64,000 nt of DNA, from assembly GCA_045612525.1 (NCBI GenBank), contig JAZKZF010000023.1, forward strand, positions 14,097 through 78,096. Direction: 5' to 3'. Each line of letters begins with the position of its first letter. The stretch's first letter is position 1. This document shows, in pieces, positions 4,449 through 17,429 of the stretch. Below the pieces are notes generated by a model, which saw nothing but the letters and a program-made list of their open reading frames with translations, did not search any database and was not told the DNA's origin. The translations under genes were made by a program, and so were the position numbers. The stretch is from Paludibacteraceae bacterium. GTDB lineage: Bacteria; Bacteroidota; Bacteroidia; Bacteroidales; Paludibacteraceae.

Positions 4449-4519
4449 GCGGCATTAGCACATCGGTAGTGCATCGGCTTCCCAAGCCGAGGAGGCGGGT
4501 TCGATTCCCGTATGCCGCT
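4449..4519 (+). tRNA. tRNA-Gly (anticodon CCC)
   Basis: Cloverleaf folded by hand. The acceptor is GCGGCAT/ATGCCGC, the D stem GCAC/GTGC, the anticodon stem TCGGC/GCCGA with loop TTCCCAA, and the T arm GCGGG-TTCGATT-CCCGT. It is 71 nt with no encoded CCA. Confidence 0.9.
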
Positions 4520-4523
4520 CTTG

Positions 4524-4554
4524 GTGAGGCGAGAGGCGAGAGGTTAGAGGCGGG
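4524..4554 (+). repeat. GAGGCGAGAGG / GGTTAGAGG array forming the tRNA-rnpB spacer
   Basis: The sequence is GTGAGGCGAGAGGCGAGAGGTTAGAGGCGGG. A 20-nt stretch (4533-4552) is identical to 10268-10287 inside sdaA. Confidence 0.7.
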
Positions 4555-4556
4555 AA

Positions 4557-4888
4557 TATATAGTGTATCGGTCTATCGCGGGATATGGGAAGAAAAGCGT
4601 ATTGCTTTAATCCCCTATTCCGAGGAAAGTCCGGGCAGCGTAGAGCACCACCGCGGTTAATGGCCGTCAGGCAGTGATGTTTGGTCCCTGCAAAAGAGAC
4701 GAGTAATCCTTAGGGAGGAAGTGATACGAGCATACGGTGGGCTGCAATTCCAAGTATACCGACGTTAGAGCGCTGCTCGCGCGAGTTGGAGGGTAGGAAG
4801 CGATAGAAGCATGTAGCAATACATTGCTCAAGATTAATGGTAGACGCCCTTATAGGGTACAGAACCCGGCTTATAGGTACACTATATA
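4557..4888 (+). ncRNA. rnpB: RNase P RNA, bacterial type A
   Basis: It carries the universal conserved regions GAGGAAAGTCCGGGC (4622-4636) and ACAGAACCCGGCTTA (4859-4873). The 5' TATATAGTGTA pairs with the 3' TACACTATATA (P1), and a T-run follows. The ends are approximate. Confidence 0.9.
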
Positions 4889-4931
4889 TTTTTATTAAGA
4901 TAAGTAATAAAAGAATAATCATAAAAAAGAC

Positions 4932-6883: not shown

Positions 6884-7270
6884 ATGTGCGAGCGCAAATC
6901 AACCATAGCCGGTTTAGCGAAAGGAGTGTATAAGGATAGAGGCAGCAAGTTTCTAGCTTTTGCCGAGCCCATCAATGATGAGGATGAGGCAAAAGCACGT
7001 ATAGCTTGGTATAAAAAGAAGTACCACGATGCTCGCCATGTCTGCTATGCCTATCGACTAGGCGAAAACCTTTGGCGCACGAAAGATGATGGCGAACCCC
7101 ATGGTACGGCGGGTATGCCTATTCTTCGCAGCATTGATGCGCAACAATTGGACAATATCTTGGTAGTGGTAGTGAGGTATTTCGGTGGAACACTACTAGG
7201 TACTGGTGGGTTGATGGTAGCTTATCGAGAGGCGACGAAAGAGGCGTTGAAGGATGCGATGAGGGTATAG
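6884..7270 (+). CDS. IMPACT/YigZ family protein, N-terminal domain only
   Basis: 128 aa with motifs [23 protein letters not shown] and [15 protein letters not shown]. It lacks the C-terminal domain of full-length YigZ. Confidence 0.7.
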
Positions 7271-9425: not shown

Positions 9426-10646
9426 TTATTCGTGTGTAGCGGCGAGTCCGCCCTGTGATGTTTCCTTGTATAGCGAAGGCAAGTCGTGTCCGGTTTGCTT
9501 CATAACATCCACGACGCGATCGAAGGTGACATTGTGTGTACCATCGGAGAAGGCCGCATACATATTGCTATCCAGCGCACGCGCAGCAGCAAAGGCGTTG
9601 CGTTCGATGCATGGTATCTGAACCAATCCGCAGACGGGGTCGCATGTCATACCTAAGTGGTGCTCAAGGCCCATCTCGGCCGCATATTCGATTTGCGCCA
9701 ATGTACCTCCAAAGAGTTGGTTAACCGCTGCAGAAGCCATGGCACAAGCTACGCCGACCTCACCCTGGCATCCGACCTCTGCGCCAGAGATGGAGGCATT
9801 TTCTTTAACCACATTACCAATCAATCCAGCAGTAGCTAAGGCATGTAAGATGCGCGTTTCTGAGAAGTCGCGCGAGCGCCATGTGTGGTATAGTACGGCA
9901 GGTAGTACGCCGCATGAGCCGCATGTGGGTGCAGTAACGATCTTGCCTCCCGATGCATTTTCCTCGCTGACCGCTAGTGCATAGGAGAAGACTAGTCCTC
10001 GTGTGCGTAGGTTGTCCTTGTATGCAGCCACCTTGATATAATAGCTAGCGGCTTTGCGACGCAGGTGCAGTGGGCCAGGCAATACGCCCTCGTGGTCCAA
10101 TCCACGCTCAACTGCCTCACGCATCACTTGCCATACCTCACGGAGGTACTCCCATATCTCTTTGCCCTCGTAATGCTCTACATACTCCCAATAATCCCAT
10201 CCCATCTTATCGCAATATTCCTTGATATCGGATAGGCGTTTAAGCGGGTAGATGGCTGTGGACGCTTGAGGCGAGAGGTTAGAGGCGAGAAGGCTAAGAT
10301 GGGATGAATTAGGATCTTCGGCCAGCGCACCTCCTCCGACTGAATATACGATCCAATCGGCAAGCGATTGCCCTACTCCATCCGATGCGCAGAAACGCAT
10401 GCCATTGGGATGGTAAGGGAGGAAATCGTCGTGCCACACGATCTCAGCTGTGGGTAGTACGTCAAGAATAGCGGCATCAGTAAGGTGGCCTTTGCCAGTG
10501 GCCGATAGGCTGCCATATAGATGCACTTGATATTGTGCAGCATTGGGACAATGCTCACGGAAGATTTCAGCTGCCTTACGGGGGCCCATGGTGTGGCTGC
10601 TGCTAGGACCATAACCTATGCGGAAAATTTCGCGAATGGTATTCAT
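9426..10646 (-). CDS. sdaA: L-serine ammonia-lyase (iron-sulfur dependent, single chain)
   Basis: It has GYGPSSSHTMGP and alpha-domain motifs. I trimmed the start to MNTIREIF (10646) because a TACCTTTG promoter box lies inside the longer ORF. Confidence 0.9.
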   Translation of the reverse strand: MNTIREIFRIGYGPSSSHTMGPRKAAEIFREHCPNAAQYQVHLYGSLSATGKGHLTDAAILDVLPTAEIVWHDDFLPYHPNGMRFCASDGVGQSLADWIVYSVGGGALAEDPNSSHLSLLASNLSPQASTAIYPLKRLSDIKEYCDKMGWDYWEYVEHYEGKEIWEYLREVWQVMREAVERGLDHEGVLPGPLHLRRKAASYYIKVAAYKDNLRTRGLVFSYALAVSEENASGGKIVTAPTCGSCGVLPAVLYHTWRSRDFSETRILHALATAGLIGNVVKENASISGAEVGCQGEVGVACAMASAAVNQLFGGTLAQIEYAAEMGLEHHLGMTCDPVCGLVQIPCIERNAFAAARALDSNMYAAFSDGTHNVTFDRVVDVMKQTGHDLPSLYKETSQGGLAATHE

Positions 10647-10684
10647 TGGTAGGTAATGAGTTTTGGAATAAAAAAATAACAGCA

Positions 10685-10692
10685 CAAAGGTA
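10685..10692 (-). promoter_or_regulatory. -7 promoter box TACCTTTG for sdaA
   Basis: The plus strand reads CAAAGGTA, about 40 nt upstream of the chosen start. Confidence 0.55.
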
Positions 10693-10775
10693 GTGCTTTT
10701 TTCTGAATTCTCCAAACAAATGTTTCAAAATTGCATTATAAGATAAAAATTCTTGCATATCTCATAAAATTATCG

Positions 10776-15123: not shown

Positions 15124-16037
15124 TGATAAGAACAAGGAATAAGGAACAAGGAGTAAAGACAGCTAGACGAATAATTCTTATTTGTCTTGTTTCTTGGTTC
15201 TTGACTCCTGTATCTATCATGAGTCAAGTGTTATACCGCATATCGGGTAACTCGGCGCTCGCACCATCGTATATATTGGCCACCAATCGGATGGTGGATA
15301 TGCGGTTTATTGATACCATCCCGAATGCATTTAAGTGCTTTGCTGAGTGCGACAAAGTGATTACCGAATTTGCGATGCAAGACTACGAGGCGATAGCCGC
15401 CTTGCGTCAGGCAGCCCTCCTACCCGACTCAGTAAGATTGCGCAATTTTTATAGCGATGAGCAATATCAGGAGATAGACGAGAGTCTTCGCATTAATCTG
15501 GGTATGGGTTTGGACAAATTAGGTAGGATGAAACCTTCGTATTTGGCAGAGATGTATCGCAATGAATTGATGAAACGTTGGCTGAACTATGATGAAGAAT
15601 GTACGATGGAGACATTCTTTGAGAAGGTGGCTTTGCAAACGGATATACCGGTATTGGGATTGGATGATGTGGGCGAGACGATGTATATGCTATTTGACCG
15701 TGAGCCATTTCATTGGCAATGCGATGAACTACTGAAAGTGATAGAATATCCTGAGAAAGAAGTGCGTTTTGAACGCCAATTGGTGGAGATGTACAAATAT
15801 GGTCGTTTGGCTGATATGGCATATTTTGTGAAAGGACCTGACAACCAGACATCGCTATCGTACTCTGATTATCAGGTGTTTGCTAAACGTAATAAAGTAT
15901 GGGTGAAACGACTAACACCCTATTTGAAAGAGGGTAAAGCATTTATCACACTGAATGCCATCTATCTAGGAGGAGATGATGGATTGTTGGCGCAACTGAA
16001 AGCCGCAGGGTATCGAGTGAAGGCGGTGAATAAGTAG
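15120..16037 (+). CDS. TraB/GumN-like family protein (divergent)
   Basis: 305 aa. LYRISGN..APSYILATNRM aligns with the family motif LW.I....S.YLFGT.H, but the G and H positions are replaced. There is a 4-nt overlap with the TPR gene. Confidence 0.5.
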   Translation: MMIRTRNKEQGVKTARRIILICLVSWFLTPVSIMSQVLYRISGNSALAPSYILATNRMVDMRFIDTIPNAFKCFAECDKVITEFAMQDYEAIAALRQAALLPDSVRLRNFYSDEQYQEIDESLRINLGMGLDKLGRMKPSYLAEMYRNELMKRWLNYDEECTMETFFEKVALQTDIPVLGLDDVGETMYMLFDREPFHWQCDELLKVIEYPEKEVRFERQLVEMYKYGRLADMAYFVKGPDNQTSLSYSDYQVFAKRNKVWVKRLTPYLKEGKAFITLNAIYLGGDDGLLAQLKAAGYRVKAVNK

Positions 16038-16124
16038 GTTATAGGTTAGAGGTTAAAGGTTAAAGGTTAGAGGTTAAAGGTTAGAGGCAAGAGGTTAGAG
16101 GTTAGAGGTTAGAGGCGAGAGGTT
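16038..16124 (+). repeat. 12 tandem heptamers (GTTATAG, GTTAGAG, GTTAAAG, GCAAGAG, GCGAGAG) plus GTT, filling the whole spacer
   Basis: Counted base by base from the TAG stop (16035-16037) to the ATG (16125). The terminal GAGGTTATG junction matches the one at 7357-7367. Confidence 0.95.
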
Positions 16125-17189
16125 ATGGGTAAGATAGGTTCGTTCTTCAATCGCAATGCGTTGTCATTGGCCATGCTAGTAGGTGTGGTGGGTTGTTCTG
16201 TGTTTAGACATCTGACGTGGATGTTACCACCACTGATATTCCTAATGCTGTTCTTTACCTTCTGCAAGATTAATCCGCTTGATTTGAGATTGAGGAGATG
16301 GCATTGTGTAGTATTGTTGACGCAATTGCTACTGGGGATAGGACTATATTATGGACTACAAGTAATCGGCAATGAGGTGATAAGGCGATTAGGTGAAGGG
16401 GTGATAGGAGGAAACGATATTGCTATTATCTCACAGGGATTGATGCTGTGTGTGCTGATGCCAACGGCTACTGCGGCACCAATCATAGCTGGTAAACTAG
16501 GGGGAAGTATTCAAAATTTGACCTCATTCACGCTGTTAAGCAATATCGCTACGGCGATTATTGTGCCCGTATTCTTTCCGATAGTCAATCCGAGTGCGGG
16601 TATCGAGTTTGATGTTGCATGCTGGATGATACTCAAGAAGATTAGTCCACTATTGCTGGGACCATTCTTTGCAGCGTGGTTGTTGCGGATTGGCTATAAT
16701 GCATATCATCGCCATAAAGGTACGGGCAAGACATTTACCTTGTCTGCAAAATGGGCACCGATGCCATTCTACGTATGGGTAGTGACGCTGATTATCCTGA
16801 TGGCAGATTTGACCTATACTCTGATTCATCAGGAGTATAGCTACTGGACAATAGGTATCTTATGCGTGGGTTCGATAGGAACGTGTCTGTTGCAGTTTGG
16901 ATTGGGTCGCAGGATTGGTTTGCGTTTTCCTGCCACGACCAAGGGTGAGGATTATCATGATGTGCTTATCAATCCAGCTGCAGCGAATTATAGTATGGAA
17001 CAGGTGAGTCGTATCACAGCGGGGCAAGCCTTTGGACAGAAGAACACTACCCTAGCCATCTGGATGGCTCAAGCGTATCTCGTGCCTGTAGCATCGATGG
17101 CCCCTGCCGCCTATATCATTTGGCAGAATCTATTTAACTCGATTCAACTGAGTAGAGAAGGACGAAAAGCAAACAAAAAAGGAGCGTGA
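16125..17189 (+). CDS. bile acid:sodium symporter (BASS/SBF)-like membrane transporter
   Basis: 354 aa and polytopic. The segments MPTATAAPIIAGKLGG...LLSNIATAIIVP and GQKNTTLAIWMA resemble BASS core motifs. Confidence 0.55.
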   Translation: MGKIGSFFNRNALSLAMLVGVVGCSVFRHLTWMLPPLIFLMLFFTFCKINPLDLRLRRWHCVVLLTQLLLGIGLYYGLQVIGNEVIRRLGEGVIGGNDIAIISQGLMLCVLMPTATAAPIIAGKLGGSIQNLTSFTLLSNIATAIIVPVFFPIVNPSAGIEFDVACWMILKKISPLLLGPFFAAWLLRIGYNAYHRHKGTGKTFTLSAKWAPMPFYVWVVTLIILMADLTYTLIHQEYSYWTIGILCVGSIGTCLLQFGLGRRIGLRFPATTKGEDYHDVLINPAAANYSMEQVSRITAGQAFGQKNTTLAIWMAQAYLVPVASMAPAAYIIWQNLFNSIQLSREGRKANKKGA

Positions 17190-17204: not shown

Positions 17205-17429
17205 GGTGTAAGGTGGAAGGTGAAAGGTGAAAGGTGAAAGGTGAAAGGTGAAAAGTGTATGGTGGATGGTGTATGGTGTAAGGTGTAAAGTGTAAAGGCG
17301 GGGCGGCTGAGCCGCAATTTCTGGGACTTTAATCTATAAACTATTATAACCTCTAACCTTTAACCTATTATAAACTATAACCTCTAGTCTTTAACCAATA
17401 ACCTATTATAACCTTTAACCTATAACCTA
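17205..17429. repeat. composite element: 13 GGTGnAn heptamers / GC core hairpin / inverted GTTAnAG-type array
   Basis: The left arm is 17205-17295. The core AAAGGCGGGGCGGCTGAGCCGCA is 17294-17316. The right arm is 17331-17429 and reads TAGGTTATAGGTTAAAGG.. on the minus strand, starting at the aminotransferase stop codon. Confidence 0.9.

Follow-up and report, generated by a model that had tools for sequence, protein, structure and literature searches.

How a stretch of sequence shared with the spacer between two RNA genes came to be read as part of a metabolic enzyme is the question raised by sdaA, the L-serine dehydratase gene, in a 64,000-nucleotide (nt) stretch of a Paludibacteraceae genome (assembly GCA_045612525.1, contig JAZKZF010000023.1, positions 14,097 to 78,096; hereafter the window). 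The answer that we favor, with a probability of roughly four in five, is that the insert in the interdomain linker of SdaA belongs to a heptamer repeat family specific to this lineage and is carried, in translated form, as a near-neutral passenger in a permissive linker, with its frame kept by selection. The gene and the parts of it that bear on this question are the following (aa, amino acids):

9426..10646, minus strand: sdaA, single-chain iron-sulfur L-serine dehydratase, 406 aa, ATG at 10646
10254..10328, minus strand: interdomain linker of SdaA, codons 107-131, ALAEDPNSSHLSLLASNLSPQASTA, about 10 aa above the 13-15 aa typical of Bacteroidales
10268..10288, plus strand: three perfect RAGGYKA-family heptamers, GAGGCGA GAGGTTA GAGGCGA, antisense to sdaA, encoding L120-Q127
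10261..10294, plus strand: full extent of the degenerate array, GACGCTT, the three perfect units and GAAGGC, about 35 nt

The product unites the SDH_beta (Pfam PF03315, 9.3e-28) and SDH_alpha (PF03313, 2.5e-78) domains in one polypeptide and matches the L-serine dehydratase of Legionella (PDB: 4rqo) at 6.6e-93. Its C293-X41-C335-X10-C346 motif is intact, with all three cysteines invariant in a 47-sequence alignment; the pattern C-X41-C-X10-C we take to be the cluster-binding motif of the SdaA family. The real start is probably the ATG at 10646 (MNTIREIF...), the TTG listed at 10715 being an extension by the open reading frame (ORF) caller that adds 23 residues (10647-10715) seen in no orthologue. 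A preliminary description of this DNA, made from the sequence, had placed the repeat antisense within sdaA, in a peptide between the beta and alpha parts of the enzyme, and this placement holds: the 20-mer GAGGCGAGAGGTTAGAGGCG codes for LASNLSPQ (L120-Q127) within the peptide ...EDPNSSHLSLLASNLSPQASTAIYPL, and SHLSLLASNLSPQASTAIYPLK is a stretch of the SdaA peptide in the linker region. The surface-loop location proposed there agrees with an AlphaFold2 model (mean predicted local distance difference test score, pLDDT, 82; predicted template modelling score 0.84), in which the beta and alpha domains are well predicted and residues 107-131 between them appear as coil, a stretch almost without regular secondary structure, with block pLDDT values of 64 for residues 111-120 and 51 for residues 121-130. 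In the alignment with 4rqo this segment faces a shorter linker. The array is solo, being accompanied by neither a hairpin core nor an ORF nor an inverted partner array, and an RNA hairpin formed by the sdaA copy was considered and rejected, given that no mRNA hairpin was found at the array and the fold is not significant (z = -0.14).

The same description had regarded sdaA as an essential-type gene, which it is not: among the 25 genomes of the genus only 6 carry it, including one in which it is a fragment at a contig end, and the gene is dispensable in this genus. The five congeners with a full-length sdaA all belong to the repeat-rich sub-clade defined below. The neighborhood of the gene varies among relatives, with methylmalonyl-CoA mutase upstream and either aspartokinase or diaminopimelate decarboxylase downstream.

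The first step in answering the question is the membership of the sdaA array in a dispersed family, which the comparisons within the genome establish. As had been noticed from the sequence, the 20-mer is exactly identical at 10268-10287 and at 4533-4552, in the tRNA-rnpB spacer, with 0 such matches expected (100 shuffles), and the suggested kinship with the units of an array at 16.1 kb is borne out by copies of GAGGCGAGAGGTTAGAGGCG with 2-3 mismatches there. The intergenic relatives of the array in the window, and the genes bounding the first of them, are:

4526..4552, plus strand: intergenic family copy, GAGGCGA twice, GAGGTTA and GAGGCG, in the spacer that separates tRNA-Gly(CCC) from RNase P RNA
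4449-4520 and 4560-4889: tRNA-Gly(CCC) and RNase P RNA, respectively, separated by a spacer of 39 nt
16036..16125, plus strand: 13-unit intergenic RAGGYKA array, beginning at the stop codon of the upstream gene
17205..17429, no strand assigned: composite of array, GC hairpin and inverted array belonging to the wider family, given as context

In the genome of the window (G000; assembly of 1.81 Mb, 77% complete) these are the only two exact sites of the 20-mer, a 19-mer of which is also found at G000:C13:3001. Period-7 arrays are numerous in both the window and the genome, their unit R-A-G-G-Y-K-A taking the forms GAGGCGA, GAGGTTA, AAGGTGA and similar. Strict arrays, defined by a pattern of at least three units, number 37 in the genome as against 2 in the reversed genome sequence that served as control, and loose arrays, in which 7/8-nt units are allowed, number 75 as against 3. 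The arrays are mosaics of CGA, TTA, TGA, CTA and CAA units found at dozens of loci, and an exact 20-mer is common to another array in 23/37 strict arrays, implying that identity over GAGGCGAGAGGTTAGAGGCG marks membership of a family and no private link of two loci. The family is abundant in G000, G007, G008, G011-14 and G022-24 alone (35-370 pattern matches), with 0-11 matches in other congeners and 0-14 in other families; as a dispersed repeat it is peculiar to a single sub-clade of a Paludibacteraceae genus. Many intergenic arrays open exactly on the TAG or TAA stop of the upstream gene (e.g. 16035-16037 and 7266-7268, as well as on other contigs), and some stop at the A of the downstream ATG.

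The sdaA case is one instance of a genome-wide phenomenon. Deep inside long ORFs lie 16 strict and, as counted with a crude ORF caller, 46 loose arrays, the latter comprising 21 on the gene strand and 25 antisense. Pfam domains were found in 13 of the 14 host genes examined besides sdaA, namely a DsbD-like protein, a ClpB-type AAA protein, LigA (with 3 arrays), an M20 peptidase, RecJ, a Rce1-like protease, a TonB receptor, two GT2 enzymes, Ddl, RsmE, a HAD hydrolase and an NTP-transferase. Arrays on the gene strand read E-V-K-G-E-R-L or E-A-K-G-E-R-R, and antisense arrays read S-P-L-A-S-N-L or S-P-L-T-F-N-L; as 3 does not divide 7, each of the three frames yields the same 7-residue periodic peptide. 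TTA-type units give TAA or TAG in one phase, and the stop-free CG unit accounts for 40% of the units in coding arrays as against 14% in non-coding ones, an excess consistent with a selective filter. In LigA (3 sites), RecJ and Ddl (2 sites), compared across 30 genomes each, the loops concerned are short and gap-free in other families and in most of the genus, and repeat-derived inserts are confined to the sub-clade nearest the window; the sites of RecJ, LigA and Ddl each show arrays in opposite orientations. By array position relative to domain limits, LigA sites 1 and 3 and the sites in the DsbD-like protein and the M20 peptidase lie between or beside Pfam domains. At the site between the OB fold and the zinc finger of LigA, in-frame inserts of 50-70 aa are present in two congeners (L128 of G014 and L130 of G012) and a 10-aa array in G000, the insert of G012 including the hairpin-core peptide SGVPEKSADFWGAL. 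A dense patch at G000:C13:1269-3436 holds a PF13366 gene (GxxExxY/PD-(D/E)XK) between direct repeats of about 60 nt, followed by a GT2 glycosyltransferase gene with four in-frame arrays in both orientations and then by an array-bracketed PF05635 gene.

Comparison with orthologues establishes that the linker segment is derived. The segment from GGG to (I/V)Y typically spans 13-15 aa in 80 named Bacteroidales genomes and 15 aa in two Paludibacteraceae metagenome-assembled genomes (MAGs) whose SdaA is 83-87% identical, as against 25 aa in the window, from which we conclude that the segment is a derived expansion; orthologues of repeat-poor genomes have neither this peptide nor its DNA. Among 120 SdaA relatives (84-100% identity) the linker ranges from 15 to 41 aa between nearly invariant flanks, so that the length polymorphism anticipated in the preliminary description is found between lineages, in repeat DNA, and is absent within the window's own species. 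Of the members of the window protein's own cluster, 15 are listed, and all but the representative are fragments (45-387 aa).

The linkers of the relatives are made of repeat DNA, namely arrays in either orientation, other heptamer families, or arrays combined with a GC hairpin. Thus, on the sense strand the linker of L103 runs from (AAGGCGA)n through a GC hairpin core into (RAGGCGA)n, and L104 has the same type of array-hairpin-array composite on the antisense strand. L105 carries an antisense array of 11 units, and L106 and L107 carry arrays of 8-nt units in opposite orientations. The commonest class in the relatives (L108 and 29 protein clusters), with the linker ENQEPGTKNKDSLLSTLNSQLSTD, owes its sense-strand sequence to (GAACCAR)x4 and (ACTCTCW)x6, two heptamer families distinct from RAGGYKA. 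In one further gene (L005, of G024) there is a 15-nt tandem duplication with a small palindrome inside. Every genome with a RAGGYKA-type SdaA linker is repeat-rich.

The turnover at this site is established by the closest pairs of genes. Between P0004 and P0035, 22 of 1221 nt are substituted, and a discrete 42-nt hairpin core, placed exactly between two units, is present in just one of the pair; this is a recent in-frame gain or loss. The peptide of this core, GVPEKSADFWGAL (on the other strand APxxxxxxFGDPAEA), also occurs in LigA of G012 and, in the genome of the window, in RsmE and the HAD hydrolase. The core has the form GAGCACCCC-inner stem-loop-CGGGGACCCCGCTG at G000:C16:21468, G000:C61:24639 and G000:C26:3845 and also in L103 and L104; the inner stem sequence differs in every copy and always pairs (ACGAACC/GGTTCGT-like, AAAAATC/GATTTTT, AAAACGC/GCGTTTT), pointing either to compensatory change or to some process that generates palindromes. 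A DNA tree built from 18 sdaA genes without their linkers shows no clustering of linker type (10 changes against a shuffled mean of 9.5), and its well-supported shallow clades mix linker types; it replaced a protein tree of the 120 relatives, the resolution of which (65 of 113 branches open) was too low for events to be counted. Inside one clade (support 98, branches <=0.005) the linker measures 28, 31 and 37 aa, and between close strains its length steps are 9, 18 and 27 nt. Two processes, singly or in combination, could account for this: frequent replacement of the linker in place, and the exchange of alleles by recombination via the conserved flanks.

Within the species the linker is stable. 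It is free of indels in same-species contigs of all 8 independent gut and biogas samples, where the variants seen are one synonymous change (10263) and one minor-contig variant (10287), as judged from assembled contigs only, from which rare alleles drop out; two metatranscriptome assemblies also cross it. The 16.1-kb intergenic array varies in 2 of 4 of the same samples by about 9 units, one sample being 63 nt shorter and another 68 nt shorter with 4 nt between. A coding copy that is fixed alongside an intergenic copy that varies is to be expected under purifying selection against frameshifts and speaks against a phase-variation switch: adding or removing a single unit would put the gene out of frame, so that selection would freeze linker length within a lineage. 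The whole-unit variation in copy number between strains that is expected of a heptanucleotide microsatellite is not seen in the sdaA array. Taken together, the checks on orthologues, lengths and structure support the capture or expansion of the repeat, in frame and in a tolerant linker, that had been proposed from the sequence.

The mechanism that we propose is as follows. RAGGYKA repeats fill spacers, form inverted arms on either side of S23p/IVS-protein genes and have entered many coding genes. An array inserted in a gene would survive if its net length is a multiple of 3, if stop-free CGA-type units occupy the stop-prone phase, and if extra residues are tolerated at the site, as in a loop or a linker between domains. 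Such a site is the SdaA linker, which has been occupied repeatedly and the content of which is swapped or replaced fast between lineages.

Several observations weigh against this account or limit it. Translation of the insert is deduced from its open, conserved frame and from the RNA contigs. No insertion mechanism was found for the arrays: a Y1/RAYT (REP-associated tyrosine) transposase (PF01797), considered as the mobilizer, was rejected, no such gene being found in the 77%-complete G000, in which positive controls were matched. The 42-nt core sits between units of identical type, where a target-site duplication is indistinguishable from the array itself. Steps of 9, 18 and 27 nt are not multiples of 21 or 24 and the arrays are mosaics, so that simple unit slippage provides no explanation of the length changes. 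The genome of L024 has 239 pattern matches and yet a short linker, indicating that abundance alone is no predictor of occupation and contradicting the notion that a repeat-rich genome implies an expanded linker. The count of 46 arrays in genes inherits the crudeness of the ORF caller, and one of the 14 hosts examined is without a Pfam match.

Among the other explanations, the one that survives best is that there are a few old linker alleles (sense, antisense, ENQ and LIQ), each of single origin, which homologous recombination in the highly conserved flanks has moved around among species. The lack of clustering of linker type on the linker-free tree, the mixing of types in shallow clades and the near-invariance of the flanks are all in line with such shuffling, as are the end motifs shared by alleles of the same type (EDP[ATN]SS...EAS; EDPxG[IVM]RLLG...). 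However, the stepwise change between 28, 31 and 37 aa in a tight clade and the gain or loss of the 42-nt core are events in place, and RecJ, LigA and Ddl show the opposite-orientation pattern at sites of their own. We consider this scenario a tentative but serious possibility, and it is not mutually exclusive with insertion or replacement in place.

A broader conjecture, which we put forward as somewhat doubtful, is that heptamer arrays, GC-hairpin composites and S23p cassettes are size classes of one undescribed mobile or template-copied element, with an active process writing or replacing arrays on either strand at nicked or stalled sites, including genes, such that loops of housekeeping proteins are continually overwritten at approximately constant length. 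The S23p cassettes are those of PF05635 genes (S23p or 23S-rRNA intervening sequence, IVS, protein), all three of which in G000 lie between inverted heptamer arrays:

G000:C13:3000-3436 (L215), G000:C13:9339-9841 and G000:C73:8265-8710: array-bracketed PF05635 loci, with unit families RAGGYKA, GGTGTAA and AACTGAA

The RAGGYKA-bracketed locus, whose PF05635 protein is encoded at G000:C13:3059-3373, has a 19-mer in common with the sdaA copy, and in 10 of 10 PF05635 loci of other genomes (one marginal) the flanks match as inverted repeats above every shuffle. Heptamer arrays hence also serve as arms of IVS-type cassettes. Solo arrays are without inverted termini. To our knowledge, no IVS or S23p element has ever been shown to move. 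At C13:3000-3436 the first array opens on the stop codon of the glycosyltransferase gene that precedes it. The repeats on either side of the PF13366 genes in G000 are of other kinds than RAGGYKA arrays. The presence of PF05635 or PF13366 was discarded as a correlate of repeat abundance, both being common in repeat-poor genomes and in other families; what stood up was the local bracketing of PF05635 genes by inverted arrays.

Evidence relevant to this conjecture comes from an inverted repeat beside the sdaA array, the arms of which are:

10295..10306, plus strand: linker arm of the 12-nt inverted repeat, TAAGATGGGATG, adjoining the array and coding SSHLS on the gene strand
10198..10209, plus strand: partner arm, in conserved alpha-domain codons for DKMGWD

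The linker arm is a perfect inverted copy of the partner, which lies 85 nt away and downstream in the gene. Such a repeat was reached in 0 of 200 shuffles and is found in 0 of 17 relatives, making it lineage-specific; the fold of 10188-10316 on the minus strand (-31.8 kcal/mol, z = -2.15) is modestly unusual. From this single case, the inverted copy is possibly the footprint of strand-switching synthesis. If the notion of one element is true, then strand switching would have left three footprints: arrays that face opposite ways at one and the same site of sister species (in SdaA, RecJ, LigA and Ddl), the 42-nt core gained or lost between 98%-identical genes, and the 12-nt inverted copy of downstream coding sequence in the SdaA linker.

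Inversion in place, whereby sense and antisense linkers of equal length (23 aa, with a 52-nt variable part) would be a single segment flipped, appears unlikely. P0018 (antisense) and P0044 (sense) do have equal lengths and identical flanks, and the two orientations in RecJ are nearly equal in length; yet reverse-complementing P0044 before aligning it with P0018 brings no improvement over the direct alignment (40/83 versus 39/72 identical), leaving inversion unsupported as the source of the linkers, although the genes differ by 8% in DNA, a divergence that could mask an old inversion.

Convergence at the protein level, in which S/P-rich or charged EAKGER-type linkers were selected as flexible tethers and their likeness to arrays is incidental, we regard as very improbable. 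It would accommodate the linker-like appearance of the peptides at what is an interdomain tether, and the 23-aa length of many variants, a possible length constraint, but the identity lies at the DNA level, as a 20-nt exact match to an intergenic array, and one DNA family read on either strand gives unrelated peptides at the same site. Moreover, the 42-nt GC hairpin core travels along in frame and turns up again in LigA, RsmE and the HAD hydrolase, and the inserts are confined to repeat-rich genomes.

Equally hard to sustain is a contingency locus, i.e. a slippage-prone array that switches sdaA on and off by frameshift (phase variation). Family arrays between genes gain and lose units between samples, and a dispensable sdaA could afford such switching; against this, length variants occur in 0 of 8 samples, albeit in assembled contigs that drop rare variants, the three perfect units are mutually different and poor for slippage, and the same arrays are found in ligA, ddl and recJ, genes for which being switched on and off makes little sense. 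Finally, the reverse direction, with the arrays deriving from the sdaA linker, or a chance match of 20 nt, is scarcely credible despite the confinement of GAGGCGAGAGGTTAGAGGCG to just two genome sites, given the expectation of 0 by chance, the outgroup SdaA proteins that are without the segment, the dozens of intergenic and genic family copies in ten congeners of a genus with sdaA in 6/25 genomes, and the 20-mers that 23/37 arrays have in common with other arrays.

The passenger reading, the near-neutrality of which we infer, thus invites comparison with repeat systems known from other organisms. The closest parallel is provided by the Rickettsia palindromic elements (RPEs), an in-frame repeat family of about 150-bp palindromes in the housekeeping genes of an alphaproteobacterial intracellular parasite (Ogata et al. 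2000 Science 290:347, as summarized in PMC10969869). According to that summary, RPEs likewise form a dispersed family that lies in frame in many unrelated housekeeping genes and is read through as an extra peptide, with insertions that the host protein accommodates in both its fold and its function. Similarly, the inserts described here are absent from orthologues in repeat-free lineages and, judging by the predicted SdaA structure (pLDDT of 51-64) and by Pfam domain limits in LigA, the DsbD-like protein and the M20 peptidase, lie in a coil or between or beside domains. Unlike RPEs, they are tandem arrays of 7/8-nt units, 21-50 nt long, with or without a 42-nt GC hairpin, in free-living gut Bacteroidales; they are read on either strand, and one site can be re-occupied by different unit families. 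The palindromic anatomy of RPEs (about 100-150 bp) is not shared, the sdaA copy being a 35-nt array with no significant fold, and no relationship in sequence to RPEs is expected. In architecture, the present system is set apart by its use of 7-nt tandem arrays, with translation independent of frame.

A second group of comparable systems is that of the heptanucleotide long simple sequence repeats (LSSRs) of prokaryotes, with which the RAGGYKA arrays share head-to-tail 7-nt units, abundance in some genomes, a mostly intergenic location and strain-variable copy number. According to the summaries in PMC4679880 and PMC4692102 of Mrazek et al. 2007, heptamer repeats are under-represented in genes, and units that are multiples of 3 are those found in coding regions. 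In contrast, 16-46 arrays lie in frame in genes here, and their heterogeneous units are common to many loci and are not a product of local slippage. The TAACTGA heptamer repeats, known from Beggiatoaceae, from Cyanobacteria and from some Bacteroidetes, among them Paludibacter propionicigenes (MacGregor 2015, PMC4679880), yield stop codons on one strand and a 7-residue periodic peptide on the other, and are almost entirely intergenic, with one two-unit set inside purC. They resemble the present family in that one favored heptamer family extends over many loci, often right at start or stop codons, but differ in unit sequence, and the systematic in-frame occupation of housekeeping proteins is not described for them. 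A literature search, with most subscription journals outside its reach, returned no description of in-frame heptamer arrays in Bacteroidales or Paludibacteraceae.

The tandem repeats of Borg elements, which give rise to disordered protein regions (PMC9879509), are also fast-evolving, occur both between genes and in ORFs, and add low-complexity segments to proteins. By that account they have a separate origin at every locus and yield perfect tandem repeats of amino acids, whereas the family described here is a single one, shared by many loci of a bacterial chromosome, with a unit not divisible by 3. Repetitive extragenic palindromic (REP) sequences, bacterial interspersed mosaic elements (BIMEs) and REPINs with their RAYT genes (PMC3733652) differ in that G000 has no Y1/RAYT gene detected in its 77%-complete assembly and in that the hairpins here are embedded in heptamer arrays, also in genes.

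The system offers a natural experiment on which loops of LigA, RecJ, Ddl, SdaA and ClpB tolerate 7-70 extra residues and on the speed at which such segments turn over, with a bearing on protein engineering, on ortholog-based annotation and on the quality control of MAGs, in which such inserts can resemble errors. The last comparison is with the 23S rRNA IVS of Coxiella, in which tandem GACAGAT heptamers of strain-variable number lie beside an S23p ORF (PMC4990558). The S23p (PF05635) genes of the present genome are accompanied by heptamer arrays in a similar manner, but they are placed between protein genes and not in rRNA, and the sdaA copy is without ORF, inverted arm or stem, having only the unit family in common with them. 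Heptamer microsatellites, REP-like hairpins and the enigmatic S23p/IVS protein genes, as a rule treated apart, are joined in one repeat system, through which S23p function and the spread of heptamers become approachable in a culturable-adjacent gut lineage.

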